Source: Burkholderiaceae bacterium
GTDB taxonomy: Bacteria > Pseudomonadota > Gammaproteobacteria > Burkholderiales > Burkholderiaceae_C
DNA: 32,000 nucleotides
Direction: 5' to 3'
Assembly: GCA_965234585.1 (NCBI GenBank)
Contig: OZ248423.1
Location: 1,073,884-1,105,883 of the forward strand
The notes beneath the pieces were generated by a model. The model did not search any database. It saw nothing but the letters and a program-made list of their open reading frames with translations, and was not told the DNA's origin. The first letter of the stretch is position 1, and each line of letters opens with the position of its first letter. Shown piece after piece: positions 3,709 through 24,944 of this stretch. A program made the position numbers and the translations under genes.

Positions 3709-4158
3709 ATGCGACACCGCGACACACAAGATTTGGTGGGCGGCCTGGCCTTGACGGCATTGGGTCTGTTCGCGGCTTATTACGCCAACGAGCACTATGA
3801 GATCGGCAATTTGCGCCGCATGGGCCCTGGATTTTTCCCGGTTTCTTTGGGTTTGACCTTGGCGGTGCTGGGCATTTTGGTGGCTCTGCCAGCTTGGTTT
3901 CGCCAGGGACCGGCCATTCAACCCGCTTGGAAGACCTTGGGTTTGGTCACGCTGAGCTTGTTGGTGTTTTCCTTCACTTTGAAATCCCTGGGTTTGATGG
4001 CCGCGACCGCACTGGCGGTTATGTTGTCATCCTTGGCTGACCGCAGCATCACATGGAAGACCCGCGGTTTGCTGTGTGCTGGCGTGGCCGCCGTCACTTA
4101 CCTGATTTTCATCGTGGGCCTGGGCATGCACTTGCCGGTTTGGCCTTGGAGCCCATAA
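3709..4158 (+). CDS. tctB: Tripartite tricarboxylate transporter small membrane subunit TctB
   Basis: 149-aa, 4-TM hydrophobic protein immediately abutting tctA (stop 4156-4158, next ATG at 4159). GGAGG precedes the ATG. Confidence 0.75.
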   Translation: MRHRDTQDLVGGLALTALGLFAAYYANEHYEIGNLRRMGPGFFPVSLGLTLAVLGILVALPAWFRQGPAIQPAWKTLGLVTLSLLVFSFTLKSLGLMAATALAVMLSSLADRSITWKTRGLLCAGVAAVTYLIFIVGLGMHLPVWPWSP

Positions 4159-5676: not shown

Positions 5677-5802
5677 TCCGTCTTTAAGCTTCTACGATGT
5701 ATATTATGTTAACAATGATGCAGGGCTCTCTGGTATCGTTTTGACGGCCTTTGCGGGACAACGTTCCGCAGACCTTTGTTTTCAACCAACCCCTCATCAG
5801 TC

Positions 5803-6612
5803 ATGAACACCATCAAACTCACCATGGCCATCGTGGCCACCGCCGCCTTGGTCGCCTGTGGTAAAACCGAAGCGCCTGTTGCCGCACCTGCTGCACCTGT
5901 GGCATTGCCTGAACTCAAGGTCGCCATTGACCCCACGTACGAGCCTTTCACTTTCAAAACCGCCGATGGCAAACCCACCGGTTTTGACGTGGACATCGCT
6001 GAAGCCTTGTGCGCCGAAATCAAGCGTCAGTGCGTTTACGTTGAACAGGTTTGGGACAGCATGATCCCCGGCTTGCAAGCCAAGAAGTACGACGTGATCA
6101 TCAGCTCCATGTCGATCACAGACGAGCGCAAAAAAGTCGTTGATTTCACCGACAAGTACTACAACACACCCAGCCGCATCGTCGTCAAGGCCGACACGGC
6201 ATTCACCGACTTGGCTTCGCTCAAAGGCAAAAAAATTGGCGTGCTCAAAGGCAGCACCCAAGAGAAATACGCCATGGGTGAGCTCAAAGGTGTTGGCGTG
6301 AAGGTTGTGCCTTACGAAGCTCAAGACCAAGTCTATTTGGACATCAAATCGGGCCGTTTGGATGGCACCGTGGCCGACTCGGTGGAAGTCAACGGTGGCT
6401 TCTTGAGCAAGCCCGAAGGCGCTGGCTACGGTTTCGTGGGCCCCGTCTTGGCCGACACCAAGTACTTTGGTTATGGCGCTGGTGTGGCCTTGCGCCAAGG
6501 CGAGACTCAGCTCAAGGACGAGCTCAACGCCGCCATCAAAGCCATCCGCACCAACGGCACCTACGACACCATCAGCAAGAAGTACTTCAGCTTCGACGTC
6601 TACGGCGAATAA
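5803..6612 (+). CDS. aotJ: Periplasmic basic amino-acid (Lys/Arg/Orn-type) ABC substrate-binding protein, lipoprotein
   Basis: ORF 5776-6612 starts at a TTG. The ATG at 5803 gives a signal peptide with lipobox LVACG. Family-3 SBP motifs are present (GFDVDIA, SSMSITDERK). First gene of a J-Q-M-O-P operon. Confidence 0.85.
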   Translation: MNTIKLTMAIVATAALVACGKTEAPVAAPAAPVALPELKVAIDPTYEPFTFKTADGKPTGFDVDIAEALCAEIKRQCVYVEQVWDSMIPGLQAKKYDVIISSMSITDERKKVVDFTDKYYNTPSRIVVKADTAFTDLASLKGKKIGVLKGSTQEKYAMGELKGVGVKVVPYEAQDQVYLDIKSGRLDGTVADSVEVNGGFLSKPEGAGYGFVGPVLADTKYFGYGAGVALRQGETQLKDELNAAIKAIRTNGTYDTISKKYFSFDVYGE

Positions 6613-6624
6613 GCTGATCCCCAC

Positions 6625-7311
6625 GTGAGCGGTTATTACCTCTCCATTCTCCAAGGCGCCCTCCTCACGGTGGGCGTCTCATTGGCCGCCCTTGGGGTGG
6701 CCATTTTGTTGGGGCTTATGGGTGCTGCAGCCAAGTTGTCCGGGCGTCCGGTGCTGGTGGCTGTGGCCACGGTCTACACGACGGTGATCCGTGGTGTGCC
6801 CGAATTGGTTTTGATGCTCTTGATTTTCTACGGTGGCACCATCGGCATGAACCACTTGATGGAGAGTTTGGGCAGCCGTGAGACGGTGGACATCAACCCG
6901 TTTTTGGCGGGTGTCATCACCATTGGATTTATTTACGGCGCCTACATGACCGAAACTTTTCGGGGTGCCATTTTGTCGATTCCCAAAGGTCAAATGGAGG
7001 CCGCTTGGGCTTTTGGCATGGGGCGTTTGCGCACCTTTTGGCGCATCACCTTGCCGCAGATGGTGCGCTATGCCTTGCCCGGCTTCACCAACAATTGGTT
7101 GGTCTTGATCAAAGCCACCGCCTTGGTCAGCCTGATTGGTTTGCAAGACATGACCTACTTGGCCAAACAAGCCAGCGCCGCATCGCGCGAGCCGTTCACT
7201 TTTTTTGTGTTCGTCGCCGTTTTGTTTTTGCTCTACACCTCCGCCTCCCTGTGGGTCTTGCGTCGTGTTGAGCGTCGGTACAGCTTGGGCGTCACGCGCG
7301 CCGAAGCTTGA
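6625..7311 (+). CDS. aotQ: Basic amino-acid ABC transporter permease (HisQ/AotQ type)
   Basis: 228-aa membrane protein, GTG start. EAA-loop-like segment (EAAWAFGMGRLRTFWRITLPQ). Confidence 0.85.
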   Translation: MSGYYLSILQGALLTVGVSLAALGVAILLGLMGAAAKLSGRPVLVAVATVYTTVIRGVPELVLMLLIFYGGTIGMNHLMESLGSRETVDINPFLAGVITIGFIYGAYMTETFRGAILSIPKGQMEAAWAFGMGRLRTFWRITLPQMVRYALPGFTNNWLVLIKATALVSLIGLQDMTYLAKQASAASREPFTFFVFVAVLFLLYTSASLWVLRRVERRYSLGVTRAEA

Positions 7312-7323
7312 AGGTGTGTTGAC

Positions 7324-8037
7324 ATGAATTGGTCGGTCATTGCCCAGCCTGAAACACTGCAGCTGTATGGCGAGGGCTTGATCACCACCCTGTGGCTGCT
7401 CTTGTCATCCTTGGCCATCGGTGCGGTGCTGTCCTTGGTGTTTGCCTTGGCCCTGGTCAGCAAGATCGCGCTGCTGCGTGGGGTGGTCGGGGCTTACACC
7501 TATGTGATCCGTGGCACTCCCTTGCTGATCCAGCTCTACCTCATTTATTACGGCTTGGCCCAACTCGAATGGATCCAAGCACGTTGGGACGACGTCTGGC
7601 CTTGGACGTATTTCAAAGACGCTTTCTTCTGTGCCTTGTTGGCGTTCAGCTTGAACACCGCTGGGTACACCGCCGAAATGTTGGCCGGTGCTATGCGCGA
7701 AACGGCACCAGGCGAAATCGAGGCCGCTCAAGCCATGGGCATGAGCCGTTGGCAGGTCTTGCGTCGCATTGTGTTGCCCAGTGCCCTGCGCCGGACCTTG
7801 CCCGGTTACAGCAACGAAGTCGTGATGATGCTGCACAGCACCAGCTTGGCCAGCACCGTGCCCGCCATGCTCGATGTGACCGCAGCGGCCAGTCGCATCT
7901 ATTCCGACTACTACCTGCCTTTCGAAGCCTATTTGTTCGCCGCAGGCATTTACCTTTGCATCACCTTCGCACTCATCGGCATGTTTCGAAGCGCTGAACG
8001 CCGCTTTTTGGCACACTTGGCTCCACGTACCCATTGA
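7324..8037 (+). CDS. aotM: Basic amino-acid ABC transporter permease (HisM/AotM type)
   Basis: 237-aa membrane protein. EAA loop EAAQAMGMSRWQVLRRIVLPSA. Confidence 0.85.
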   Translation: MNWSVIAQPETLQLYGEGLITTLWLLLSSLAIGAVLSLVFALALVSKIALLRGVVGAYTYVIRGTPLLIQLYLIYYGLAQLEWIQARWDDVWPWTYFKDAFFCALLAFSLNTAGYTAEMLAGAMRETAPGEIEAAQAMGMSRWQVLRRIVLPSALRRTLPGYSNEVVMMLHSTSLASTVPAMLDVTAAASRIYSDYYLPFEAYLFAAGIYLCITFALIGMFRSAERRFLAHLAPRTH

Positions 8038-11947: not shown

Positions 11948-12555
11948 ACCAAGCCCATGCGTTGCATCCAATCCGCCAACGCCTGTTCGTTCGCCCCACC
12001 CGCCCGGTAGGCTTGGTACATGGCGGTATGCGATTCGGGCCGGTGTTGGTTGAGCTTGACGGCACACTGCAGGTCTTCAACATCGAGCTCAAAGGCCACA
12101 ATGGCGTGGAGCATTTTGTCGGTGTAGTCCTCGGGCAAACCGCGCCACTGATCGGCGTAGGCCGGTTCGTGGTCCCCAATGAGTTGCTTGAGCAGCGAGT
12201 CTTTGGCCGCCTCACCCTCAAGCACGCGGGCCCTCACCCGGGCTTGCACCGCCACATAGCTCCAAGTCGGTACGCGCTGCAAGTCGGTGTAGACCTTGGG
12301 CGACATGTAAGCGTGAGGCCCCATGAAGCTCACCAGTGCCATCGGGCGTTGAAGCAAATGCTTCCACTGTGGGTTGGCGCGAGCACAGTGCCCGAGCAAA
12401 CGCTGCGCACCACCGGGCTGTGTCTCCAGCCGCAGCGGCAGGTACGTCACACACGGAAAACCATCGTCGTCGGTCGTGACCAAACTGCCCAGAGGGTGCT
12501 CGCGCATGACCGCGGCTGCCTGCGCGGGTTGATCAAATTGGCGCGGAACGTACAT
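11944..12555 (-). CDS. FMN-binding negative transcriptional regulator, PaiB family
   Basis: 203 aa. Characteristic MYVPRQF N-terminus and PaiB-like length. Confidence 0.7.
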   Translation of the reverse strand: MYVPRQFDQPAQAAAVMREHPLGSLVTTDDDGFPCVTYLPLRLETQPGGAQRLLGHCARANPQWKHLLQRPMALVSFMGPHAYMSPKVYTDLQRVPTWSYVAVQARVRARVLEGEAAKDSLLKQLIGDHEPAYADQWRGLPEDYTDKMLHAIVAFELDVEDLQCAVKLNQHRPESHTAMYQAYRAGGANEQALADWMQRMGLV

Positions 12556-12561
12556 GGCAAA

Positions 12562-12936
12562 TCAGGGTTTGACGATGCAATAGGCGGCCAGTTTGTTGCC
12601 GTCCAAATCGCGGAAATAAGCGCCGTAAAAGTCGCCGTTGCGCTGACCCGGTGGGCCTGCGTCTTGGCCGCCCAAGGCCAAAGCTTTGTTGTACAAAGCT
12701 TGAACCTGCTCGCGGTTGGCTGCAACCAAAGCCACCATGCTGCCGTTGCCCACAGTCGCGGGCTCCGCATCAAAAGGCTTGAACACGCTGAACATGGGTT
12801 TGTCTGGCGCAATGCCCCAGCCCACACCACGATCCGTTTTAAACGTGGGCTTGGCGCCCAGGAGGCTCAAGAGCTCGCCATAAAACGCCACAGCTTTGCT
12901 CAGGTCGTTGGTGCCCACACAGGTGTATCCGATCAT
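12562..12936 (-). CDS. VOC (glyoxalase/bleomycin-resistance fold) family protein
   Basis: 124 aa. MIGYTCVGTNDLSKAVAFY and FRDLDGNKL are typical of small VOC proteins. GGAGA RBS upstream. Confidence 0.75.
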   Translation of the reverse strand: MIGYTCVGTNDLSKAVAFYGELLSLLGAKPTFKTDRGVGWGIAPDKPMFSVFKPFDAEPATVGNGSMVALVAANREQVQALYNKALALGGQDAGPPGQRNGDFYGAYFRDLDGNKLAAYCIVKP

Positions 12937-12976
12937 TCATGTCTCCAAGGTGATAAAGAAATGAATGTACACCGGC

Positions 12977-12994
12977 TCACTCCCACTTAATAGC
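12977..12994 (-). repeat. att copy A (distal): degenerate duplicate of the guaA 3' end
   Basis: TCACTCCCACTTAATAGC. Its reverse complement reads GCT ATT AAG TGG GAG TGA, which is A-I-K-W-E-stop. 16/18 identical to copy B. Lies where G+C drops. Confidence 0.75.
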
Positions 12995-13115
12995 AACGCT
13001 GTGCTACTTAACGTGTAACTGTAAAGTCAAAGCCAATTTTAAACAACTATTTTTTGGAGTTCAATATACCCCCAATAAATTGGCTAATGATTTAGAGGGG
13101 ATATAAAATTTATCT

Positions 13116-13370
13116 TTATTCGTTATTTTTTTCAAAAATAATTAGCTCGCTGTTACCAAGAGTCCAGATGCCAAGTGTCAGCACTAAAATTAACAAGCGA
13201 AATAGCAAATGTAATATGTTGAGACTCTCTGAATGAATTAGATGTAAATTCCATCCTCTCACATTCATTTCCTCTACTTTTGCTTGTAATTTACCCTTTG
13301 AGCTACCTGCTATCAATCCATATAAACCACCAGCGTAAGTGATTCTTTCAACTTGATTACTTTTTGACAT
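13116..13370 (-). CDS. Hypothetical small membrane protein (84 aa)
   Basis: ATG preceded by AAGGA. Soluble N-terminal half, then one TM helix (LNILHLLFRLLILVLTLGIWTL). No family recognised with confidence. Confidence 0.45.
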   Translation of the reverse strand: MSKSNQVERITYAGGLYGLIAGSSKGKLQAKVEEMNVRGWNLHLIHSESLNILHLLFRLLILVLTLGIWTLGNSELIIFEKNNE

Positions 13371-13505
13371 ACATTCCTTTCAAGAGTTGTAAATCCAAAC
13401 TTAGATGACTAAAAAATTCACCTTTTTCAATCATATCAAAATTGGTTACATTTTGATGACGGTTTCTTAATTAACTAAGATTTTGAGCAATAGCAAAGCT
13501 GTACT

Positions 13506-13618
13506 GCTTTACGAGTAACTTTAACTTCGCAGCCCTTAAAAATCAACAGCTTAGCGATTTTGAGAAACTTTTGTGTAAGTAGAAAACCTATATAAATCAA
13601 CGACTTAGCTTCAAAAAG
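13506..13618. repeat. Arm of element 1 homologous to the int-proximal arm of element 2
   Basis: Hand alignment to 21751-21864. Two blocks of about 50 nt match at roughly 72-75% identity (37/49 and 36/50), separated by a 15-nt unrelated stretch with a 1-nt indel. Confidence 0.7.
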
Positions 13619-13636
13619 TCACTCCCACTCAATAGT
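13619..13636 (-). repeat. att copy B (internal junction between elements 1 and 2): duplicate of the guaA 3' end
   Basis: TCACTCCCACTCAATAGT. Its reverse complement reads ACT ATT GAG TGG GAG TGA, which is T-I-E-W-E-stop. 14/18 identical to the genuine guaA end (copy C). Confidence 0.8.
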
Positions 13637-13797
13637 TACTCGACTAAAATAGTCAATTAAATCAATAGGTTGTAGTTCACAACAATATGTGTGTAACATT
13701 TGTGTAAAAATAAGGTAAGTGAAATTTTCTTAATTTTTTTCCGAAACAATACTGTAGCGCTGGTTGTAACGGAATCTAGTTACACAATAAGCAAGAA

Positions 13798-14466
13798 CTA
13801 AGCAAAAACTCTTTCACGCAGTAATAAGAATGCTTCCGCAGCAAAAAAACCCGAAGACGAACCTCGATAACGAGCTAACGCCTCGATAGAAACTCGACTA
13901 CGCGGGAACGGAAACGAGCCAACTTCAGACGAGTAAATCTCCATAGCCTTAACCTTGAGATCCAAAAACTCGGAAATATCAACAAAGACATTTGGGACAA
14001 AACTGTGGCTCGCATCTAAGCCAAACTCTGTCTCGGAAATTGTTTCATAAGATAAAACTCGCTTAATGTATGGGTAACGAAACCATTTCGTACAGCTTAA
14101 AACAGCATTATGTATTATCTTATGATCAGAATGAATATCTCCTAGATGTGGAACAAATATCTCATCAGGGCGAAACAAACTTACCACTTCTGAAATTTTT
14201 TGTACTACATCGCCAAAAGGTAAAGCATCAAGTTTCGTTGTAGGGAAACCGAGCTTATAGACTTCATCGAAATCAAAAAATCGTGTGACCTGATTGATCT
14301 CTGCTTCTCTTTCCGAGATCTTATTTTGACTCCATCCATAATCAACTTTAAGGTCGGTAGCAATTAACCAAGCAACCGAAACACCTTGGGACTTATACTT
14401 TAATATGGTCCCGCCTACGCCTAGCACCTCATCATCTGGGTGCGGAGCTACAACCAAGACTTTCAT
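13798..14466 (-). CDS. PIG-L/LmbE-family N-deacetylase
   Basis: 222 aa. Metal-site motifs VVAPHPDDEVLG and HSDH. ATGA overlap with the upstream gene (14463-14466). Confidence 0.85.
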   Translation of the reverse strand: MKVLVVAPHPDDEVLGVGGTILKYKSQGVSVAWLIATDLKVDYGWSQNKISEREAEINQVTRFFDFDEVYKLGFPTTKLDALPFGDVVQKISEVVSLFRPDEIFVPHLGDIHSDHKIIHNAVLSCTKWFRYPYIKRVLSYETISETEFGLDASHSFVPNVFVDISEFLDLKVKAMEIYSSEVGSFPFPRSRVSIEALARYRGSSSGFFAAEAFLLLRERVFA

Positions 14467-15347
14467 AAGTAGATTCCTTTAGTCACCATAAAAACAGGCT
14501 CAGTGTAAATCAACTTAATAGCTTTATCTCCACACTTAACAACCGGAAAACCTGAACTATCAATATCAACAACTTTACCTGGTTCGATATTACTAACATC
14601 ACTTACAACAACCTCGGTCTTCCAGACTTTATAATTAACTTCATTGAAATGAAACTCAGCGCCGACGTAAGGCTTCCCTAAAGCCCTAACGAGGTTATGA
14701 ATTGAGATAGCACTCATTCTCCAGTCAATTACACCGTCTTCTCTGCCTCTTTTTCTCCACGTATTAGCTTTCGAATCGTCTTGCTCGATCCTAAAGTAAT
14801 CTTTAGCTATTAGTTTAGGAAGGAACTCTTCGATCTGATCTAAAGCTTTAGAGACCACCTTGTCATAAAGCGATCGAGCATTATCATAGTCATTGATTGG
14901 AATAAAAGATTGAGAAAGAATGTCACCACTATCAGCTCCTTCATTCATAAAAAAGAAAGTGGAAGCGGTTTCCGTTAGACCTAATGCGAGCGCCCAGATG
15001 ATTGGATGACGTCCTCGATTAGCTGGCAAAGCGGCAGGGTGAAATCCGACAACACCCATTGGTGCGACGTTTAGTATTCCGGATTTCAGCAAACGTGACC
15101 AACCAAAGCAGAACACTATGTCAGGATTGAGATTAGCAATCCAATCCAATGAAGTTGGTGAATTTATATCATCGACATATAAGCTTGGGATGTTTCGTTG
15201 ATTGGAACAAACAGTCAAATCGACGAAGTCAGAGTTGAACGAAGATGCTTTTAAGGTACAGACGCCAACAACATTGGCGTCAAGAGAAAGCACTTTCTCA
15301 AGCGCCTTTAACGAGAACTCGACAGCACCAATAAAAACTATCCTCAT
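14463..15347 (-). CDS. Formyltransferase (Fmt/ArnA-N-like, probable sugar N-formyltransferase)
   Basis: 294 aa. Formyl_trans N-domain with FHPAALPANRGRHP (compare HPSLLPxxRG) and a downstream acidic loop (ADSGDIL), plus a C-terminal Fmt-like domain. ATGA overlaps at both ends. Confidence 0.8.
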   Translation of the reverse strand: MRIVFIGAVEFSLKALEKVLSLDANVVGVCTLKASSFNSDFVDLTVCSNQRNIPSLYVDDINSPTSLDWIANLNPDIVFCFGWSRLLKSGILNVAPMGVVGFHPAALPANRGRHPIIWALALGLTETASTFFFMNEGADSGDILSQSFIPINDYDNARSLYDKVVSKALDQIEEFLPKLIAKDYFRIEQDDSKANTWRKRGREDGVIDWRMSAISIHNLVRALGKPYVGAEFHFNEVNYKVWKTEVVVSDVSNIEPGKVVDIDSSGFPVVKCGDKAIKLIYTEPVFMVTKGIYL

Positions 15348-16513
15348 TTCATCCTCAAATCGTAAAATTCTTTCTTTATTAATGAGTCATATTCTACTGT
15401 GCGTAAAACATCGATGATGCGTTCCGCAGATCCACCATCACCATATGGGTTGACCACGTTTAATATTTTGTGTCGAAATACAGGTGAATAAGAATACTCA
15501 ATTGCCAACCTAATCTCTTCCTTGAGGGGCTTACAATTGATCACACTTTCACATTGAAGTCTTCCTCTCTGTCGATCACCTATGTTAACAGTAGGCTTCT
15601 TAAACGTTGGGACTTCCGCAAGTCCACTCGAAGAGTTTCCGACAACAGCATCTACCTGCGCAACACAGCTAAGATATCTTAATTGCCCTAACGAAGTAAA
15701 AGCGTAAGCGTTATTATTATTAGAAACAAAAGTTTCTATCGCACTATAAATCGCTCGGCTATCGGTATCTGAATTCGGCATTGTAAAAATTAATCCAGTT
15801 CCCTTTAAGTCAGACAATGCGCTTAACAACTCATTCATTTGAGCTAAGGAAGTCTCCTTCTCTAGCGTAACCGGATGGAAAGTAACCAGTAAATTCTTTT
15901 TTCTAAACTTCATTCCTAACGAATCTTCAAGTTCAGACTTATTTAAAAGTTTAATATTTTTTATGGCATCAACACCGAGACCACCTACATTAAAAACAGT
16001 ATCTGGATTTTCACCTAGCTGGATAACTCTATTCCGATAATCATCATTTGCCACAAAATGTAAATGCGAAAATTTCGTTATTGAATGCCTAATCGCTTCA
16101 TCAATAAGTCCTTCTGTAAGCTCACCGCCATGTAAATGAGCTATCGGGATTCTGGCAAACATAGCCGCAACCACCGCGGATAAAATCTCAAACCGATCAC
16201 CTAGAACCAAAATTAGGTCGGGCTTAAGAGAATCAAAAGAATCAGCAAATCCTAATATGCCGAGAGAAGTAGACTTAGCTAATCCCACTGGAGTGTCGGA
16301 AACAAGAACAAGATCAATTTTTCTGTCAATTGAAAAACCATCCGACTCAATCTCCTTGTATGTCTCCCCATATTTTTTCGATAAGTGGCTGCCTGTAGCA
16401 ATTAATTGAAGTTCAAACTCGGCTGAAGTCTTTATCAACCCAATCAGGCGTCGCAGAAGTCCGTATTCAGCACGAGTTCCAGTGATGACACAGATTTTTC
16501 TCTTGACTGACAT
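15344..16513 (-). CDS. UDP-N-acetylglucosamine 2-epimerase (hydrolysing), NeuC/LegG-like
   Basis: 389 aa. N-terminus KICVITGTRAEYGLLRRLI, HLHGGE and the overall layout match NeuC-type enzymes. AAGGAG sits 5 nt before the ATG. Confidence 0.85.
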   Translation of the reverse strand: MSVKRKICVITGTRAEYGLLRRLIGLIKTSAEFELQLIATGSHLSKKYGETYKEIESDGFSIDRKIDLVLVSDTPVGLAKSTSLGILGFADSFDSLKPDLILVLGDRFEILSAVVAAMFARIPIAHLHGGELTEGLIDEAIRHSITKFSHLHFVANDDYRNRVIQLGENPDTVFNVGGLGVDAIKNIKLLNKSELEDSLGMKFRKKNLLVTFHPVTLEKETSLAQMNELLSALSDLKGTGLIFTMPNSDTDSRAIYSAIETFVSNNNNAYAFTSLGQLRYLSCVAQVDAVVGNSSSGLAEVPTFKKPTVNIGDRQRGRLQCESVINCKPLKEEIRLAIEYSYSPVFRHKILNVVNPYGDGGSAERIIDVLRTVEYDSLIKKEFYDLRMK

Positions 16514-16577
16514 ACCATCTCCTTAGCATTTGTGTTGTAACGACAAGCGATATCGAGGACACGTTACCAGATAGCAC

Positions 16578-16606
16578 TTGTTTGCTCAATCAATTATATC
16601 TAGAAT
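16578..16606 (+). promoter_or_regulatory. Possible sigma70-type promoter for the hns-like operon
   Basis: TTGTTT (16578-16583), 17-nt spacer, TAGAAT (16601-16606). About 30 nt upstream of the RBS-supported ATG at 16638. Confidence 0.3.
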
Positions 16607-16637
16607 GAACCGTCAACTTAAAAAATTGGAGAAAAAA

Positions 16638-16856
16638 ATGAGCCGTATCGACGAAATCCTCGCTAAACAAAAAGCACTTGCTGATGAGCTTGAGATGGCT
16701 AAGCAAGAGGAGCGTGACGCTGTACTGAAGGACATCAAGGAGAAGATCAAGCTCTTCAACTTCAAGACTACAGACTTCAAGGGCGTACTTGCCACACGCA
16801 AGAAGCGCGGCACAGCAACACCTAAGAAGACTGTTGCTAAGCGCACAGCGAAGTAA
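16638..16856 (+). CDS. Truncated H-NS-like protein (dimerisation coiled coil plus basic tail, no canonical DNA-binding domain)
   Basis: The ORF track starts at a TTG (16578), but GGAG at 16628-16631 supports the ATG at 16638 (72 aa). MSRIDEILAKQKALADELEMAKQEERDAVLKDIKEKIKLFNF resembles the N-terminal domain of beta-proteobacterial H-NS-like proteins. It ends in RKKRGTATPKKTVAKRTAK and lacks a TW(S/T)GRG-type C-terminal motif. Confidence 0.55.
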   Translation: MSRIDEILAKQKALADELEMAKQEERDAVLKDIKEKIKLFNFKTTDFKGVLATRKKRGTATPKKTVAKRTAK

Positions 16857-16867
16857 CTTGGTGCCGT

Positions 16868-17683
16868 ATGGCAAAGGCCTTTGCTCACGTACCCGTACCT
16901 AAGTTCAGCGCAAATCACCTAGCACTCGCTGAAGTTTGTGCCATTGAGCTGTGGAATGGCTTCGACTACCAGACTGGCAAAGAGTTTGACGTAAGCGATG
17001 AAGACTTGCTTGTGATGTTTTCAACGCCTACGTTTGCGATGTACAAAAGTGCGAGAACAAGACAACAACTTACCGAGCTAGACATACGTGAACTGATACG
17101 TGTAGCAAGACTTAAAGCATTATTTCGCTCGGAACAGCCGACGGACTTTCAAGGCGCTATTGCTGCCTACAGAGCAACAGCATTAGCGACTTACACTGGA
17201 TTTAAGAAGAAGAGCTTGCCGCTAGCCAATCGCTACGACTACGCAACAAAGGCAACACTGGACTGGAGTGTTAAGTTCGTTAATAACTCAAGCGTATCGA
17301 TAAACGGAAATCACCGTGTTCCGCTAGCTTGTCGTATCTTGTTCTTTGCGATGCCAGATATGATGGTATTCAACTTTTCAAACGGCTTGGCAAAGAAAAT
17401 GCGTCTTCAGTCACGTCCGCAAGCTGCCATCCCTTACTTTAATAAACTACTTTCCGATGGATTACAGCTTAACAAAGCCTTGCTGAAGAACTTGGATATG
17501 CCTAAGCCGACAACACTAAGCGAAGATATATGGACGGCGGCGAATAAAGGCGGCTGGTGGCAGCGTCGTGTGCTTGACCTAGCTCTGCTACTTCACTTTG
17601 GACTAGTGACAGCAACACCGCAACTACAAACTAAAGGTAGGCAACTTGCGGCAAGATGGACAGCAAGAAAGAAGACGCCTTAA
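16868..17683 (+). CDS. Hypothetical protein (271 aa), no family recognised
   Basis: Starts 11 nt after the hns-like stop, so probably co-transcribed. Coding-like composition. Its stop overlaps the convergent recombinase stop in the palindrome TTAA (17680-17683). Confidence 0.6.
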   Translation: MAKAFAHVPVPKFSANHLALAEVCAIELWNGFDYQTGKEFDVSDEDLLVMFSTPTFAMYKSARTRQQLTELDIRELIRVARLKALFRSEQPTDFQGAIAAYRATALATYTGFKKKSLPLANRYDYATKATLDWSVKFVNNSSVSINGNHRVPLACRILFFAMPDMMVFNFSNGLAKKMRLQSRPQAAIPYFNKLLSDGLQLNKALLKNLDMPKPTTLSEDIWTAANKGGWWQRRVLDLALLLHFGLVTATPQLQTKGRQLAARWTARKKTP

Positions 17684-18255
17684 ACCAACTCAACAGCCTT
17701 ACGCTTCATTGCGTCATTGACGTCAATGTATGCTTGCGTGGTACTGATATTACGGTGTCCAGCTAGACTTTGTAACACCCTAACACTGACACCTTTGTCT
17801 GCTAAATTGGTGATAAAAGTTCGACGAGGACTGTGACTGGTTGCGCCTTCAATGCCGCAACTGCGGAACAAGTAATGGAAAAACTGGCAGAGCGTATTAG
17901 CTGTAAATCCGTCTGCGTCTTTCTTCTGTGTGTAAAACAGCTTGTTGGTGACAGCTTTGTAGGGGACAGCACGGACGTAAGCTTGTAGCTCTTTGCGTAG
18001 CTTGTCGCTGACAAACACTACCCTACCGTAGCGTCCTTTTGTCTGCTCTGCGTCCAAACGGATTTCACTACGTACAGCGCCCACTGCGTCGAGTATGTCC
18101 TCGTAACGCAATGCGGCGCACTCCCCTACACGCAAGCCTGCCAAATACATAGTCATAAGCATCGCTCTATTTCGGGCTGCGTGACGATGTGTAGCTACGT
18201 AGTCCAAAGCCCTACGTAGCTCTTGTGTTGTCAGTGTTTTTGTTTGCTTGGACAT
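17680..18255 (-). CDS. Small tyrosine recombinase (catalytic domain only, 191 aa)
   Basis: AAGGAGAG RBS before the ATG at 18255 (the track's 18345 start is a TTG). Catalytic signature present: GLRVGE (Arg), HSPRRTF (H-x-x-R), GHRNISTT (His), QAYIDV (Tyr). No N-terminal core-binding domain. Confidence 0.8.
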   Translation of the reverse strand: MSKQTKTLTTQELRRALDYVATHRHAARNRAMLMTMYLAGLRVGECAALRYEDILDAVGAVRSEIRLDAEQTKGRYGRVVFVSDKLRKELQAYVRAVPYKAVTNKLFYTQKKDADGFTANTLCQFFHYLFRSCGIEGATSHSPRRTFITNLADKGVSVRVLQSLAGHRNISTTQAYIDVNDAMKRKAVELV

Positions 18256-18390
18256 TAGTGCTCTCCTTAATGTAAGCTTTCCAATGTCTAAAGTGTATTT
18301 TCTTTGATTTGCTTTTCCTACCGATTTTGGCTGTACGTGCGTCAATGTTTTTTCCTCAATGATTTCAAGCGGTTACGCTATGTGATGCTT

Positions 18391-18424
18391 AAAACCAAAG
18401 CTTTTGTATATTAGCTTTGGTTTT
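18391..18424. repeat. Perfect 11-bp inverted repeat with 12-nt spacer
   Basis: AAAACCAAAGC (18391-18401), TTTTGTATATTA, GCTTTGGTTTT (18414-18424). Lies in the ORF-free region upstream of the small recombinase. Confidence 0.8.
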
Positions 18425-18756
18425 GTATTTATCGGTAAGCTGTGGCACTTGAGCAACGATTGACGCAGACTTGCGTACAAGTCCTACACGCTGTTTTTAG
18501 CTAGTCCAGCTACCCAAGCCTAGCCCAGCTCCTTTTAAGCTGTTAAAGCTTGCTGTAGCGTGTCTGTGCTCACCTCTAGTCTTCTGCTACTTCCCTACTC
18601 TGCTTGCTGTACTAGCTCACTGTGTCAGTGTTGTCTGTAATGTTTGACTGTTTCAGTGTTGTTGTTTGAGTGTTTGTGTTTTGTATAGACGTAGCAAAGC
18701 AATTAAAGCATTGCGCTTTAATGGAAAGTAGCAAAAGGCAAACTAGGCCAGTAATG

Positions 18757-19281
18757 CTATTTGACGTGCGTCCAAAGCACGTTGTCGCTGTGCTTAGCCG
18801 CTGTCTCTTTTGTTATGTACTCAAGCCAACCGCTATCCGCAATATCTTCCTTGTGCTGTTCATCTATGTGCTCAACGTACTTCTTTGCTTCGCAGACTAG
18901 CGCATCGAACTGATTAAACCTAACGTGCTTTGGCAGATTGCCAATCGCAAAGTGTAGGTGTAAGTGCTTTCCGCTACGCTCACCCTCAACGACTGGCAAG
19001 TACTTCAATGTCTTTCCGTGTCTTTTGGCTGCGTGTCCATACACAGCAATGTTCAGCTTCTGCTGAAAGCGTTGCGTAATGCGTTCGCAATCTTGCTTTG
19101 TAATCGCACGTCGAACAGTACCCTTCGGCGTTTCTTCGACGATGGTTTGCTTAAGTGTCAATGTCAAAGCCAGCGGAAAATCATTAGCCATACCGCATAT
19201 CCACGTGCGTGTAGCTGCCTTAACAGTAAGCAACGCATTTGGGTTGTAGGCAGTACGTCTGCGGATTTCTTCTAGCTTCAT
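18757..19281 (-). CDS. Hypothetical protein with HUH-endonuclease (rolling-circle Rep/relaxase)-like motifs
   Basis: 174 aa. Motif-I-like ALTLTL (nt 19153-19170), motif II HLHLHF (nt 18949-18966), motif-III-like EYITKE, i.e. Y-x-x-K (nt 18805-18822). Order and spacing are compatible with small HUH Reps. Assigned by motif only. Confidence 0.45.
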   Translation of the reverse strand: MKLEEIRRRTAYNPNALLTVKAATRTWICGMANDFPLALTLTLKQTIVEETPKGTVRRAITKQDCERITQRFQQKLNIAVYGHAAKRHGKTLKYLPVVEGERSGKHLHLHFAIGNLPKHVRFNQFDALVCEAKKYVEHIDEQHKEDIADSGWLEYITKETAAKHSDNVLWTHVK

Positions 19282-19387
19282 ATATCTATTTATCCGAAAT
19301 CAAAGGAAAGAAGAAATTTTTTGTCTGGTTGTCCTTAAGCTTTTCTGAAGCTACAGTACAAATTCCACTTTACGAAACGGAGTTTTT

Positions 19388-19828
19388 ATGAGCGCACTAG
19401 CCAAACTGAAGCTTGTCAATAGCAAGCGTAGCCGTACTGTTAGCCCTATCGTTCATCGTCGTAACAAGTTGGTTGCGAAGATTGCTGAACAGATTGAGCT
19501 GGCAACAGCACAGAAAGAAGGACGTTTGTACGCACCTAAAAAGCTTAAGACTGTTACTAACGCAGACACTTGCGAACGCCGTACTATTGAGACGACCAAG
19601 CGTGTTAAGGAATGGTTTTGGACTGCTGATAGCGGCAAGATTAACTTCAGCGTACGCTACGGCAGCAAGGTGATTGAGCTTGCTAAGGGAAAAAACGCCG
19701 TAGAAGTTGCGAATACAGACGAATTGATTGGCACGTTGTCGCTGATTAAGGAAGCGGTAACGGCTGGCGAACTCGACGAAGCAATCAACACAGCCAGCGA
19801 CAAGCTACGCTCTGGCTTTTCCAAATGA
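19388..19828 (+). CDS. Hypothetical protein (146 aa)
   Basis: GGAG RBS 6 nt before the ATG. Divergent from the HUH-like gene. Followed by a strong terminator. Confidence 0.6.
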   Translation: MSALAKLKLVNSKRSRTVSPIVHRRNKLVAKIAEQIELATAQKEGRLYAPKKLKTVTNADTCERRTIETTKRVKEWFWTADSGKINFSVRYGSKVIELAKGKNAVEVANTDELIGTLSLIKEAVTAGELDEAINTASDKLRSGFSK

Positions 19829-19836
19829 CAGCACAA

Positions 19837-19872
19837 GGGCTGGCTTAGCGTAAGTCAGCCCACTCTCTTTTT
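19837..19872 (+). terminator. Rho-independent terminator
   Basis: GGGCTGGCTTA-GCG-TAAGTCAGCCC forms an 11-bp stem with one G-U pair (19837-19861). It is followed by ACTCTCTTTTT. Confidence 0.65.
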
Positions 19873-19900
19873 CTCACTAAATAAAAGAAAAGGAGAAACT

Positions 19901-20278
19901 ATGAGGTTCTTTGAGTTTGCGGATGCGGAAGCACAGCTTGGACTTCTGCGTACGATTATTGACAACACTTGGGCAGCTATCGCTAAGCAAGCAGAGGAAC
20001 AGAAAAAGGCAGAAGCACAGCGTAAGGCTAACGCCAAGCTCAGGCCACGTAAGCGTAAGGAAAGTATGGGTAAGGCAATAAAAGTTCCTACCCCCAAGCC
20101 ACCCCCACCACCACCCGAGCCTAAAGTTGCCAACCCCCAGCACAAGCCGCAGCCTAACGCACAGCTACCCACAGCACAACAGAACCTAGCCCAGCCTTAC
20201 AACGGCGCTGTGTCTCGCCTCAATAATGCGTCTTTCGGCGCCAAATCGCACACTTCTGGCGCTGATATTGGCTTTTAA
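19901..20278 (+). CDS. Hypothetical proline-rich protein (125 aa)
   Basis: AAAGGAGAA RBS. Helical, charged N-terminal half, then a low-complexity tail (PTPKPPPPPPEPKVANPQHKPQPN). Confidence 0.55.
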   Translation: MRFFEFADAEAQLGLLRTIIDNTWAAIAKQAEEQKKAEAQRKANAKLRPRKRKESMGKAIKVPTPKPPPPPPEPKVANPQHKPQPNAQLPTAQQNLAQPYNGAVSRLNNASFGAKSHTSGADIGF

Positions 20279-20413
20279 AAAAATCTTGGTTGCGGTGACG
20301 ATAGGCATAGCAAAAATGGTATCTGTACCCTTTAATTTTTGTTGCGTAATTTTCAGCACTGAAGTACTTACGCTTTCAGCCTGGCCGTTTTTACTCACCA
20401 CCCCAACCTAACT

Positions 20414-21703
20414 TTACTTTGGAATCAGTAAGCCATCCTTATAGTAAAACTCTGGCATTGCGTTTTCAATCATCTTGCGCTCTGTTGTATGGTAGTAAGT
20501 CTTCTCAATCTGCGCTGTACTTGTGCCGCAAGTCTCTGCCACTTGCGTCGGCGTAGCGCCTCTGTTAATTCTGTCTGTAATAAAGTAATGTCGGAAGCTG
20601 TACGGCACTAAGTCCCTAGTGTCCGTTTCCTTAATCTCCGCCATCTCAACTATTTTGTCAAAGTTGTATTGGATAGCACGTGCGGTGATTGATGATGTAC
20701 CGTTTGTGCTAAAGATAAGCGTTTGAGCAAATGGGACAAAATCTTTCTTGCCTTTAGTTGCTTTGATGTATCTCGGCTGTAGCAACTTAAAAAGTTCGTC
20801 AAAGTACTCCCAATCCTTAACAACAAAGCGTCTTGTCTTCCTTACCTTTGTCGTTTCTGCTCTTACTGTAATCTTAACAAGGCTGTAGGTTTCGTCTTCC
20901 GCTTTGCCTTTTACATTCTTTTGCATCCACTCAATGTCACACCAGCGTAGCTGTAACTGTTCGCCTCTGCGTAGTCCAGTGAGTATAGAAATCAGCAAGT
21001 AGTAGGCTGTAACAGCTTTGGTTATGTTACCTTTTTCGTTAATCGCTGCCTTTGCGCTAGCGATGTACGCCTCAAGCTTAGTCTTAATATTTACGATTTC
21101 TTCGTCCGTAAAAGTGCTTCTGCGTAGTGCTTCGTCACCTCTGTCTATGCGCTTTAATGGCTTAAAGTCAAAGCTGTCGATATACGTTTCGTTTCGCTTG
21201 TACAACCACGCCATCATTGCGTTAATCGTACTCTGCTCGTTAGCTACAGTCGTTTGACTGACATTAAGGCTACGCTTTGTTTTCGTGCGACTATGGAGAT
21301 AGTTTTCGCAATCAGTACGTTCCATCTCCTTAAGCTTAGTGTCACGCCCAATGTAGTTGAGCCAGTGCTCCAAGTGCGTTTTAATTGTTCCGTAACGTCC
21401 TTTAACGATAAGCTCAGCCTCGACGTCCTTAGCCCTCTGCTTTAAGTATTCCTCTACGCCTTGCTTAGCTGTCTTTGAGAAGTAAGTCTTACCAGCCAAC
21501 TGTTGCGCCATCAGTTCGTGATAATGCTTCTTAGCTTTGTCTATCGCCGTATCTCTATTTCTCGTACGTAGGCTAAATCGTGCGTACTTATTTTCCTTAG
21601 CGAGCCACATACGCATCTGCCAATACTCACCCCTTCTATACACGACAGCTTCGTCGTAGATTGGGATTTCGTCGTCGTTGTATGACTGTTTTTTGAGAGG
21701 CAT
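20414..21703 (-). CDS. int: Tyrosine integrase (site-specific recombinase, guaA-adjacent)
   Basis: ORF 20414-21775 begins at a TTG inside the conserved arm repeat. The first ATG is at 21703 (429 aa), so the start is uncertain. Catalytic residues present: GLRRGE, YSFRHYF, and the Tyr in IEKTYYH. Confidence 0.85.
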   Translation of the reverse strand: MPLKKQSYNDDEIPIYDEAVVYRRGEYWQMRMWLAKENKYARFSLRTRNRDTAIDKAKKHYHELMAQQLAGKTYFSKTAKQGVEEYLKQRAKDVEAELIVKGRYGTIKTHLEHWLNYIGRDTKLKEMERTDCENYLHSRTKTKRSLNVSQTTVANEQSTINAMMAWLYKRNETYIDSFDFKPLKRIDRGDEALRRSTFTDEEIVNIKTKLEAYIASAKAAINEKGNITKAVTAYYLLISILTGLRRGEQLQLRWCDIEWMQKNVKGKAEDETYSLVKITVRAETTKVRKTRRFVVKDWEYFDELFKLLQPRYIKATKGKKDFVPFAQTLIFSTNGTSSITARAIQYNFDKIVEMAEIKETDTRDLVPYSFRHYFITDRINRGATPTQVAETCGTSTAQIEKTYYHTTERKMIENAMPEFYYKDGLLIPK

Positions 21704-21750
21704 ATGGCGCTTAGAGTGACTACGTTTTTGAACGGCTACAGCTTTGTGTA

Positions 21751-21864
21751 GCTTTACGTGTAACTTTAATGCCAACGCCCAACTAAATCAACAACTTAGT
21801 TGGGCGTGTGTCTGTTTTGTGTAACTGCAAATTCTATATAAATCAATAACTTAAGTTAGAATTT
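21751..21864. repeat. int-proximal arm of element 2 with repeated motifs
   Basis: Contains two units, each TGTAAC followed 20-26 nt later by AAATCAAYRRCTTAG-like sequence. Homologous to 13506-13618. Confidence 0.7.
21776..21806. other. Perfect 11-bp stem / 9-nt loop hairpin between int and the guaA stop
   Basis: CGCCCAACTAA-ATCAACAAC-TTAGTTGGGCG. Located 59 nt downstream of the guaA stop on the minus strand, so it may act as an island-supplied terminator or as a protein-binding site. Confidence 0.5.
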
Positions 21865-21882
21865 CTACTCCCACTCGATGGT
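21865..21882 (-). repeat. att copy C: genuine 3' end of guaA at the island junction
   Basis: CTACTCCCACTCGATGGT. Its reverse complement reads ACC ATC GAG TGG GAG TAG, which is T-I-E-W-E-stop. Shares the ACTCCCACT core with copies A and B. Confidence 0.85.
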
Positions 21883-23475
21883 CGCAGGGGGTTTTGAGCT
21901 CACGTCGTAGGTCACGCGGTTGATGCCGCGCACTTCGTTGATGATGCGCCCCGAGACTTTTTTGAGCAGCGCGTACGGCAGCTCGGCCCAGTCGGCGGTC
22001 ATGAAGTCGCTGGTCTGCACCGCACGCAAGGCCACCACGTAGTCGTAGGTGCGGCCGTCGCCCATCACGCCCACGCTCTTTACCGGCAAAAACACGGTGA
22101 AGGCCTGGCTGGTGAGGTCGTACCAAGTCTTGCCAGTATCGTCGGTGAAGTTGCGCAGCTCTTCTATGAAGATCGCGTCTGCACGGCGCAGCAGGTCGGC
22201 GTATTCTTTTTTGACTTCGCCCAAAATCCGCACGCCCAAACCGGGGCCTGGGAAGGGGTGGCGGTAGACCATCTCGCGGGGCAAGCCCAGCGCCACGCCC
22301 AGCTCGCGCACCTCGTCTTTAAACAGGTCACGCAAAGGCTCGAGCAACTTCAAGCCCAGCTGCTCGGGCAAGCCGCCCACGTTGTGGTGGCTCTTGATGG
22401 TGACGGCCTTTTTGCTTTTGGCTCCGCCCGACTCGATCACGTCGGGGTAAATCGTGCCTTGGGCCAAGAAGGTCGCGCCCTTGTGTCCTCCGCCACCAGC
22501 TTTGAGTTTGGCGGCCTGTTCTTTGAACACATCCACAAACAAGCCGCCGATGATTTTGCGTTTGGCTTCGGGCTCGCTCACACCGGCGAGCTTGCCCAAG
22601 AACAGATCGCTGACGTCCACGCGGATGACCTTAGCGTGCAGCTTGCCCTCGAACATCTCCATGACCATGTCGCCTTCGTTTAAGCGCAACAAGCCGTGGT
22701 CCACGAACACGCAGGTGAGTTGGTCGCCGATGGCGCGGTGGATCAGCGCGGCGGCCACGGACGAATCCACACCGCCGGACAAACCGAGGATGACTTCTTC
22801 GTCACCGACCTGTTCTCGGATCTTGGCCACGGCCTCTTCGATGTAGTCGCCCATGACCCAGTCTTGGCGGGCTTGGCAAATGTCGAGTACGAAGCGGTTG
22901 AGCAGCGCCTGGCCTTGCACGGTGTGCGTGACTTCGGGGTGGAACTGCACGGCGTAAAAGCGGCGGGCCTCGTCGGCCATACCGGCAATCGGGCAAGCCG
23001 GTGTGGAGGCCATGACTTTGAAGCCCTCGGGCATTTGGGTGACCTTGTCGCCGTGGCTCATCCACACCTTGAGCATGCCGTGGCCTTCGGCCGTGGCGAA
23101 GTCTTCGATGCCTTTGAGCAATTCGGTGTGGCCGTGCGCGCGCACCTCGGCGTAACCGAATTCGCGCGTGGTGCCCGCCTCGACCTTGCCGCCGAGTTGC
23201 TGCGCCATGGTCTGCATGCCGTAGCAAATACCCAGCACCGGCACGCCGAGCTCAAACACCGCGTCGGGCGCTTTGTCGTCCACCTCGTACACGCTGGCGT
23301 GGCTACCCGAGAGGATCACGCCCTTGAGCTGACCGTCGGCGGCGAACTCGCGCACCCAATCGCTGCTCACGTCGCAGGGGTGAACCTCACAATACACATG
23401 CGCCTCGCGCACGCGGCGGGCAATGAGTTGGGTGACTTGCGATCCGAAGTCGAGGATGAGGATCTTCTGGTGCAT
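21865..23475 (-). CDS. guaA: GMP synthase (glutamine-hydrolysing)
   Basis: 536 aa from the ATG at 23475 ([13 protein letters not shown]). GATase domain and ATP-PPase motif SGGVDSS. Universal C-terminus KPPATIEWE. Confidence 0.97.
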
Positions 23476-24944
23476 CAATCAGCCCGGTAGTTCGGTGCTT
23501 CTTTGGTGATTTGCACGTCGTGCACGTGGCTCTCGCGGATGCCGGCAGTGGTGATTTCGACGAACTCGGCCTGGTTGCGCATGTCTTCGATGGTGGCGCA
23601 GCCGCAGTAACCCATGCTGGCGCGCAGGCCGCCGGCCATTTGGAAGATGATGGACACGACCGAGCCTTTGTAGGGCACACGGCCTTCGATGCCTTCGGGC
23701 ACGAGCTTGTCGGCGTTGGGGTTGCCGGTGCTGCTTTCTTGGAAGTAGCGGTCAGCGCTGCCTTGCTGCATGGCGCCGATGGAACCCATGCCGCGGTAGC
23801 TCTTGTAGCTGCGGCCTTGGAACAAGATGACTTCGCCCGGCGCTTCTTCGGTGCCAGCGAACATACCGCCCATCATCACGGTGCTCGCGCCCGCAGCGAT
23901 GGCCTTGGCGATGTCACCGCTGTAGCGAATACCACCGTCGGCGATCAGGGGCACGCCGGTGCCCTTGAGCGCCGTGGCCACGTTGTCCACGGCCATGATT
24001 TGTGGCACGCCCACGCCGGCCACGATACGGGTGGTGCAAATCGAGCCGGGGCCAATACCAACCTTTACGCCGTCGGCACCGGCTTCGACCAAGGCCAAAG
24101 CCGCCGCGCCAGTGGCGATGTTGCCGCCGATCACTTCAATGTGTGGGTAGTTTTGCTTGACCCAACGCACGCGGTCGATGACACCTTTGCTGTGGCCGTG
24201 CGCGGTGTCGACCACGATGGCGTCCACACCGGCGCGGGCCAGCGCTTCCACGCGCTCTTCGGTGCCCTCACCCACGCCCACGGCCGCGCCCACGCGCAGC
24301 TTGCCAGCGGCGTCGCGCGCGGCGTTGGGGAAGTTGAGTTGTTTGGTGATGTCTTTGACGGTGATCAGGCCCTTGAGCTCAAAGGCTTCGTTGATCACGA
24401 GCAATCGCTCAAGTTTGTGTTTGTTGAGCAGGTGCTTGGCTTGCTCGGGCGTGGTGCCTTCGGGCACGGTGATCAAGCGATCACGCGGGGTCATGATTTC
24501 GCTGACTTTTTGGTCGTAGCGGGTCTCAAAGCGCAAATCGCGGCCCGTGACAATGCCCACCACTTGGCGGCCGTCGCAAACGGGAAAGCCCGACACACCC
24601 AGCTCCACGCTGAGGGCCATGACTTGGCGCACAGTGGTGTCCGGGGTGATGACCACCGGGTCGCGCAAGACGCCGGATTCGTAGCGCTTGACCTTGGCCA
24701 CGTGCGCGGCTTGTTCTTGCGGGGTGAGGTTTTTGTGCACGATGCCGATGCCGCCCTCTTGCGCGATGGCGATGGCCAAACGGGCTTCGGTCACGGTGTC
24801 CATGGCCGCGGCGACCAGGGGCAAATTCAATAGGATGTTGCGGGTGAACTGGGTGGCCAGCGAGGTGTCCTTGGGCAGGACTTGGGAGTATGCGGGGACC
24901 AACAAAACGTCGTCGAAGGTCAGTGCTTTGCCGAGAAGGCGCAT
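23475..24944 (-). CDS. guaB: IMP dehydrogenase
   Basis: 489 aa. [10 protein letters not shown]-terminus, CBS pair, catalytic loop [11 protein letters not shown]. Stop and start with guaA share 1 nt (TGATG). Confidence 0.97.

Follow-up and report, generated by a model that had tools for sequence, protein, structure and literature searches.

The window analyzed here, a stretch of 32,000 nucleotides from a Burkholderiaceae bacterium (contig OZ248423.1 of assembly GCA_965234585.1), carries a low-GC block at the 3' end of guaA, the gene for GMP synthase. We read this block as two related integrative elements that entered the same guaA site by site-specific recombination mediated by a tyrosine recombinase and that now lie in tandem, and we put the probability of this reading at about 0.85. 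The element next to guaA, called unit A, is intact, with an integrase, both canonical arms of its attachment (att) site, a backbone, and a slot for cargo genes beside the distal arm. The other one, unit B, has no integrase and, as judged from its arm, is a rearranged remnant, derived from one or more other members of the family, and not a duplicate of unit A. The mechanism, i.e., site-specific integration and tandem accretion, is known, while the element family itself appears to be uncharacterized.

Measured in 500-nt bins, the G+C content is 0.32-0.48 across 13001-22000 and ~0.62 in both flanks. On the right lies guaA (21865-23478, minus strand; Pfam GATase, NAD_synthase, and GMP_synt_C), whose product ends in ...TIEWE before a TAG stop and which has guaB upstream. 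Across the low-GC block lie FMN-binding and VOC/glyoxalase genes, the latter (12562-12936, minus strand; Pfam Glyoxalase) being a host gene and the native downstream neighbor of guaA. The final 18 nt of guaA, att copy C1 (CTACTCCCACTCGATGGT, 21865-21882), recur as copy C2 (TCACTCCCACTCAATAGT, 13619-13636; 14/18 identical to the guaA copy) and as copy C3 (TCACTCCCACTTAATAGC, 12977-12994; 12/18 identical). The degenerate pattern YNACTCCCACTYRATRGY matches these three copies alone in the 32 kb, with 0 matches in 100 shuffles. A 9-nt identity block, ACTCCCACT (21867-21875), is common to guaA, 13621-13629, 12979-12987, and the empty attB described below, and it contains the crossover region GAGTGGGA (guaA strand). 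A first-pass annotation of this DNA, made from the letters alone, had already described the drop in G+C, the three copies of the guaA terminal 18-mer with a middle copy at 14/18, and a tyrosine integrase next to guaA; the bins, the uniqueness of the pattern in the window, and a Pfam match at 20414-21703 bear out these three points.

The exact limits of the insert come from an uninterrupted version of the locus. An exact-protein look-up of the VOC protein retrieved a 753-bp metagenome scaffold (ENA ERZ28594447; L001 in our numbering of loci), whose VOC protein is 100% identical to that of the window and which holds, without interruption, the last 30 guaA codons, 40 nt, and then the VOC gene. 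Its reverse complement aligns with the window at 12320-12987 (95.4% nucleotide identity) and at 21867-21958 (93.5%), and the two blocks overlap by exactly 9 nt, ACTCCCACT, which joins window position 12987 to 21867. Since this junction passes through the shared 9-mer, the insert measures 8,888 bp, partitioned from core to core into 8,246 bp of unit A and 642 bp of unit B; between the 18-mers, unit A spans 13637-21864 and unit B spans 12995-13618. An empty site joining the left end of the block to the guaA stop, some 40 bp from the VOC gene, is what the first-pass annotation had predicted, and the junction falls exactly in the 9-mer common to the three copies, not away from the 18-mers. The native site of L001 reads ACC ATC GAG TGG GAG TGA, with TGA as its stop. 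Set against it, the host TGA is now the one at the far-left copy, the present TAG of guaA comes from unit A, and the middle TGA from unit B, and the first-pass argument from the three differing stop codons is correct. By the same comparison, this TAG and everything to the left of 21867 are element-derived.

The position of the crossover can be narrowed with related loci, collected from 61 species-level genomes and 80 metagenome contigs. The bases 5' of the GAG codon vary with the host at 115 guaA-side junctions and are of the element type (ACTATT) at 38 distal junctions, and the final Glu codon ends in G at 111/115 proximal junctions and in A at 25/38 distal ones. This pattern of host and element bases places the crossover within GAGTGGGA, and the AAG of the left copy in the window narrows it further to AGTGGGA. 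The empty site and the attP-type junctions have an identical core. In the mechanism that we propose, each attP would carry a guaA pseudo 3' end (A/T-I-E/K-W-E-stop), and strand exchange in GAGTGGGA would leave GuaA unchanged, swap its stop codon, and displace the native stop to the other end of the inserted DNA.

The 18-mers are the cores only, and the repeats reach well past 18 nt. The stretch 13471-13635 is a homologue of ~165 nt (~73% identity) of the spacer between guaA and the integrase (21712-21881), and 12992-13058 is a third, partial copy of one spacer module, abutting the left core. In unit A, the integrase-proximal arm (P arm; 21704-21864, minus strand) corresponds to an nhmmer profile kept in ~140 loci, with E values down to 1e-50, and it includes matches to the integration host factor (IHF) consensus at 21786-21798 and 21841-21853 as well as GTGTAAC at 21758 and 21819. 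The distal arm (P' arm), taken together with att copy C2 (13619-13636), occupies 13622-13707 on the minus strand; its profile matches the distal ends of ~45 related elements, with an IHF-consensus match at 13660-13672 and GTGTAAC at 13691. Across the family the P arm is ~170 nt long and the P' arm ~90 nt, both conserved at the nucleotide level, the former with three GTTACAC-type repeats and the latter with a TTGATTT motif and, at ~65-85 nt from the core, two GTTACAC repeats. The IHF consensus WATCAANNNNTTR has 5 matches in the 32-kb window against 0.61 expected, all of them on one strand and within att arms. The P arms of units A and B have two each, and the P' arm of unit A has the fifth. This layout of arm repeats and predicted IHF sites resembles that of the attP of phage lambda, and IHF would be expected to bind there.

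Unit B consists of three parts. At its left end lies att copy C3 with a partial P-arm module (12977-13058, minus strand), the module itself (12992-13058) corresponding to profile positions 79-145. C3 is composed of host TCA, ACTCCCACT, and element TAATAGC, and the partial module meets the left core at a CTATT motif that is present also at the canonical P'/core boundary. Next comes an AT-rich filler of ~410 nt (13059-13470), for which nhmmer gave no match outside the window, and then a P arm (13471-13618, minus strand) with IHF-consensus matches at 13541-13553 and 13595-13607, which ends ~10 nt short of the would-be integrase ATG. Unit B thus retains its two cores and a P arm that is nearly complete, and it has no canonical P' arm at 12977-13058. 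The interior of the unit has no homologue in ~145 related loci (nhmmer) and no Pfam, NCBIfam, or PHROG match. It contains an 84-aa open reading frame (ORF; 13116-13370, minus strand) with a hydrophobic C-terminal half and no family match, which is probably not a gene.

The ancestry of unit B is visible in its arm. The first ~135 nt of its P arm closely resemble the P arms found in another subfamily (loci L063, L142, L056, and L050), with E values of 1e-28 to 1e-32 against those arms and of 1e-11 to 1e-12 against the arm of unit A, and its stop type, TGA-CTTTTT, is typical of the same subfamily. Unit B would then be a member of this other subfamily that lost its integrase and body and kept the integrase-proximal arm and both cores; it was probably the earlier arrival, although the order is one that we infer. 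The tandem array of the first-pass annotation therefore stands as far as two units between three copies are concerned, and it does not stand as a pair of functional elements, the unit at 12995-13618 being an integrase-less scar. Because unit B has no canonical distal arm, unit A alone (C1 x C2) is expected to excise. Its departure would leave guaA ending in the TGA of unit B, i.e., guaA ...ACCATCGAGTGGGAGTGACTTTTTG... and then the arm of unit B, and the predicted circle junction, ...GTAACTATTGAGTGGGAGTAGAAATTC..., would consist of 13637-13707 reverse-complemented followed by 21864 downward, in the form P'-ACTATTGAGTGGGAGTAG-P.

Unit A belongs to a family that is widespread and specific to guaA. 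Its integrase has >1,500 homologues, >100 of them above 82% identity, which come mostly from lake metagenomes, and in nearly all related loci with upstream DNA visible the integrase gene lies ~167 nt after the guaA stop. Hosts are found among Beta-, Alpha-, Gamma-, and Deltaproteobacteria, Nitrospira, and Bdellovibrionota, with isolates of Limnohabitans, Chromobacterium, Sapientia, Jezberella, and Roseomonas among them. In close relatives the genes follow in the order int - orf125 - DUF6641 - rep - small recombinase - orf271 - orf72, and more distant members retain at least int, DUF6641, and the small recombinase. The distance between the arms ranges from 1.5 kb in remnants through 5.2-5.5 kb in minimal members up to 11 kb. 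Limnohabitans strains with 95-96% identical GuaA carry other members of the family (integrase 60-83% identical), so the block was not inherited by descent. Tandem arrangement and decay also occur elsewhere: in L131 two full elements lie in tandem, partial P arms follow the distal core in L092 and in L050 (a Jezberella isolate), as in the window, and internally truncated integrase remnants lie beside guaA in about a dozen genomes. Decay and accretion are thus routine in this family, in agreement with the three-step model of PMC5704250.

A 7.6-kb family member with different cargo lies at guaA in Vibrio cholerae GCA_026613975.1 (L143; JACYRV010000002.1, 9756-15056). Its backbone shows 93.2% nucleotide identity to that of the window over 5.3 kb, with a 96% identical integrase, and the identity spans window positions 21948 to 16638, breaking off right at the beginning of orf72, the border to the cargo. 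Its cargo comprises an Antibiotic_NAT-family acetyltransferase and a DUF4910/DUF2172 protein, and the three cargo genes of the window are absent. In the family as a whole, cargo always adjoins the distal arm, the side where an older resident would sit, and this position suggests that cargo is gained via accretion and then deletion. We surveyed 66 non-backbone ORFs from 40 elements. The commonest families included AT3 acyltransferases (9 ORFs, 6 of them with a fused SGNH domain, the architecture of O-antigen acetyltransferases) as well as NeuB, formyltransferases, FkbM methyltransferases, and GNAT acetyltransferases. Restriction-modification components, also among the commonest, were represented by Eco57I, MmeI, D12 and C5 methylases, ResIII, AlwI, and EcoRI methylase. 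The cargo trio of the window falls in the glycan-modification class.

The gene content of unit A starts, on the guaA side, with the tyrosine integrase of 429 aa (20414-21703, minus strand; Pfam Phage_integrase, PF00589, E = 1.1e-11), whose gene start is 161 nt from the guaA stop and whose catalytic domain is preceded by a long N-terminal extension. The mechanical ORF reaches a TTG at 21775; exact look-up of this 453-aa version gave no match, and P0001 is a 100% identical protein of 429 aa, which is the real product. It is followed by a backbone ORF of 125 aa (19901-20278, plus strand), whose N-terminal ~60 aa are kept in relatives (tblastn synteny) and which has no Pfam family, and by a DUF6641 gene (19388-19828, plus strand; PF20346, E = 7e-15), which is syntenic in relatives. 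Then comes the gene of a small HUH-type rolling-circle Rep of 174 aa (18757-19281, minus strand), recognized from its motifs and from a sub-threshold Pfam match. The motifs LTLTLKQ, LHLHFA, and GWxEYITKE, which correspond to motif I (uTLT), the HUH motif, and the tyrosine motif YxxK, are invariant or nearly so in 21 sequences, and a PF23343 annotation is precomputed on many homologues. Such a Rep would let the excised circle replicate by the rolling-circle mode or be nicked for mobilization.

Between rep and the next gene lies an intergenic region (18346-18756) with short tandem repeats at 18607-18681, 28-nt and 14-nt units rich in TGTTTCAGTGTTG within a gap of 410 nt, and this region may be the replication origin or nick region. 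The next gene encodes a second, small tyrosine recombinase (17680-18345, minus strand; Pfam Phage_integrase, E = 8e-28) with all catalytic residues present; it is an ORF of 221 aa, called as 191 aa in relatives, and its NCBIfam matches, Xer-like and invertase-like, are all below the cutoff. Two further backbone ORFs, of 72 aa (16638-16856) and 271 aa (16868-17683), occupy 16638-17683 on the plus strand, and the conserved backbone stops at 16638. The variable cargo (13798-16513, minus strand) consists of three glycan-modification genes: a NeuC-type hydrolyzing UDP-GlcNAc 2-epimerase (15344-16513; TIGR03568 NeuC_NnaA, 484 bits against a cutoff of 236), a formyltransferase (14463-15347; Pfam), and a PIG-L-family deacetylase (13798-14466; Pfam), all on the minus strand. 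A perfect inverted repeat of 16 nt (17995-18010 / 19795-19810) was considered as an inversion site of the small recombinase and rejected. Both arms encode S-D-K-L-R in frame, one in the small recombinase and the other in DUF6641. The arms of the repeat diverge by 0-5 nt in relatives and show no consistent covariation, and the repeat is therefore best read as a by-product of the shared peptide.

Several observations weigh against the reading of two integrative elements, or against parts of it. The empty site is known from a relative of ~95% identity, not from the same population, and no strain-specific excised circle or repaired site was seen. P'-core-P junctions, which are expected of attP or of a tandem boundary, were found in L077, L080, L092, L093, L097, L113, L120, L131, and L050 and count in favor of the reading, but these contigs could be tandem arrays and not circles; in L080, for example, the two ends of the contig share 338 nt at 98.5%, implying either a circle of 5,414 nt or a tandem repeat. 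No AlpA- or Xis-type excisionase is recognizable among the ORFs of at least 50 aa scanned with Pfam and NCBIfam, and one of the four backbone ORFs without an assigned function could act as the excision factor. The match of the Rep to PF23343 (REP_ORF2-G2P; E = 2e-5) reaches 25.2 bits against a gathering cutoff of 27.8, and its structure model, of moderate quality (pLDDT 72), finds the nuclease domains of adeno-associated virus (AAV) Rep as its best Foldseek matches in the PDB, at values that are not significant (E ~0.03, TM ~0.39). GTGTAAC shows no enrichment across the window (5 found, 3.1 expected), and it is its placement within the arms that suggests candidate arm-type sites. As for unit B, the partial P-arm module at the left core, together with the missing P' arm, means that a simple integration and one internal deletion do not explain it, and its mobility, including mobilization in cis, is doubtful.

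An alternative that we consider unlikely is that the whole insert is a single, composite element whose third att site lies internally and in which the 642-bp unit would be a cassette that the integrase moves either alone or with unit A. Just such an arrangement of three sites is found in the island GIsul2, whose integrase moves the CR2-sul2 unit (PMC9376610); unit B, for its part, has two cores, an almost complete P arm bearing two IHF-consensus sites, and, by its left core, a GTTACAC-type repeat. However, the left end of unit B has no canonical P' arm, its interior has neither a homologue in the ~145 related loci nor a supported gene, no identical or similar mini-unit occurs elsewhere among the fetched loci, and its arm comes from a different subfamily than that of unit A, which points to separate origins. 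Less likely still is that unit B is a locally duplicated or rearranged copy of the end of unit A itself. The repeated modules are indeed direct and adjacent to unit A, but the arms of the two units are only ~73% identical, that of unit B scores far better against L063, L142, L056, and L050, and the unit has its own TGA-CTTTTT stop type; this origin we regard as extremely improbable.

A degraded prophage or a phage satellite, e.g., a satellite of a filamentous phage moved by packaging, would account for the weak match of the Rep to PF23343, an ORF2/G2P family, for the match of DUF6641 to PHROG 31551 (E = 6e-26), and for the lack of conjugation or mobilization genes in the element in the Pfam and NCBIfam scans. 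Yet the insert showed no genes for capsid, coat, assembly, or lysis functions, and the family members, at 5.2-11 kb, carry defense-type cargo. The Pfam, NCBIfam, and PHROG scans of the insert ORFs detected no relaxase, type IV secretion, or phage structural or capsid genes; IMG/VR holds no relative of the integrase, and tblastn against 50,697 phage records gave neither a close relative of the integrase nor a match to the Rep. A phage origin is therefore very improbable. Plasmids offer little more, as tblastn of the integrase against 72,556 plasmids returned a single weak match (E = 1e-6) in a Nonomuraea record. Two related integrative elements in tandem remain the reading that we prefer.

Among known systems, the nearest in target is GIsul2, which inserts at the 3' end of guaA with the core GAGTGGGA and shows the layout attL/attLR/attR, its integrase moving a CR2-sul2 unit that has no integrase of its own (PMC9376610). 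On plasmid pAB3 it comprises a 400-aa Int (Arm-DNA-bind_3 and Phage_int_M), AlpA, RepA/RepC, trbJKL, ars genes, resG, and CR2-sul2. With GIsul2 and related guaA islands that carry int and alpA (BcenGI2, an IncP island, and PIME; bioRxiv 10.64898/2026.01.12.698999), the element of the window shares the target, the crossover in GAGTGGGA, and the restored guaA end. GIsul2-type islands, too, can contain three direct att copies at once, two of which flank a unit without an integrase; they are likewise small elements that are non-conjugative and that carry variable cargo besides a replication gene. The precedent of GIsul2, which the first-pass annotation had cited, therefore holds for the 8-bp crossover region and goes no further than the target. 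Kinship of the integrases was rejected, as BLASTP against the GIsul2 Int of pAB3 showed no detectable similarity, with a best E value of 1.7, and tblastn of the window integrase against the plasmid collection, in which GIsul2 is present on pAB3, gave no match to it. In Pfam, the integrase of the window matches the catalytic domain alone, in contrast to the Arm-DNA-bind_3 and Phage_int_M domains of GIsul2 Int. The backbone differs as well, consisting of an HUH Rep, a small tyrosine recombinase, and DUF6641, and AlpA, RepA/RepC, trbJKL, and resG were all absent from the element in the Pfam and NCBIfam scans.

In tandem structure, the best parallel is the accretion of a cis-mobilizable element (CIME) with an integrative and conjugative or mobilizable element (ICE or IME), as in ICESt1/ICESt3, for which a model of integration, decay to a cis-mobilizable element, and a second integration by the target gene has been put forward (PMC5704250). 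In both cases an intact element lies next to the target gene, a decayed relative without integration genes lies beyond it, a direct att copy separates them, and the two units come from related but distinct elements. The present case differs in its hosts, which are Proteobacteria, in its size of 5-11 kb, in having no conjugation module, and in a remnant without a canonical distal arm. With the recombination of lambda it would share an attP of ~260 nt, a short core, heptamer repeats in both arms, three IHF-consensus sites (two in P and one in P'), and an integrase extended at its N terminus; unlike lambda, it has no Xis-like gene that could be found, and it is an island, not a phage. The element is thus like GIsul2 and PIME in target and outcome and like CIME-ICE in its tandem structure, and it is a member of neither. 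Our search of the literature (guaA with freshwater genera, DUF6641, and guaA attB tandem) found no description of the family in a library of incomplete coverage, which is no proof of novelty.

Resistance islands such as GIsul2 are known to land in the last guaA codons. That an unrelated integrase family uses the same 8 bp in at least three phyla suggests that the site is targeted for its near-invariance (GuaA ...IEWE) and not through a shared ancestry of the integrases. A broader interpretation, which we offer tentatively and at slightly less than even odds, is that these elements form an undescribed and very abundant family of 5-11 kb (Xer-like integrase, HUH Rep, small tyrosine recombinase, and DUF6641) that uses the 8-bp core of GIsul2 and shuttles anti-phage cargo between bacterial classes without recognizable transfer genes, the cargo being gained by accretion and then deletion. 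The anti-phage cargo of this interpretation would be the O-antigen acetyltransferases, the nonulosonic-acid enzymes, and the restriction-modification systems, and the window would be a snapshot of cargo gain by accretion and deletion. The 93% nucleotide identity between a Limnohabitans-like betaproteobacterium and Vibrio cholerae points to movement between classes and, on the strength of the sequences, to a recent and wide transfer. Present-day mobility and the route from cell to cell are presumed here, and the HUH Rep might serve as a relaxase or in single-stranded export. Among lake bacterioplankton, Limnohabitans and Polynucleobacter included, the family is common, and its cargo of surface-glycan modification and restriction-modification genes shapes phage susceptibility. 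With a minimum of ~5.4 kb, it is also a compact and tractable system for studying broad-host-range integration and cargo turnover.

The element further explains a recurrent contig break and a low-GC patch by guaA in freshwater metagenome-assembled genomes. Many of the metagenome contigs (L063-L142) start ~100-300 nt inside the 3' end of guaA or stop within the integrase, which makes the element a recurrent assembly breakpoint. Another branch of the family may have a different target: in L129 (12,480 nt) and in L130:9812-12701, the integrase is 62% identical and the P arm recognizable, the core is different (...GCGCCAATGGCGTCAGAGTAG), and no guaA lies upstream. L129 has an exact terminal overlap of 99 nt, the sole exact one among the contigs checked, and may be circular; a stretch of 2,890 nt in it recurs with 100% identity within a 162-kb contig, and its long ORFs resemble a type I restriction-modification system, with an N6-methylase-like motif NPPF. 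Elsewhere in the window, a milder dip in G+C (0.49-0.59 at 3501-8000) coincides with TctA/TctB tricarboxylate transporter and amino-acid ABC transporter genes, i.e., ordinary housekeeping genes, and no mobility genes were seen in it. Finally, several element-bearing metagenome-assembled genomes from lakes are labeled Klebsiella pneumoniae, Bordetella parapertussis, or Lautropia mirabilis, names that are implausible, as their GuaA is freshwater-Burkholderiales-like.

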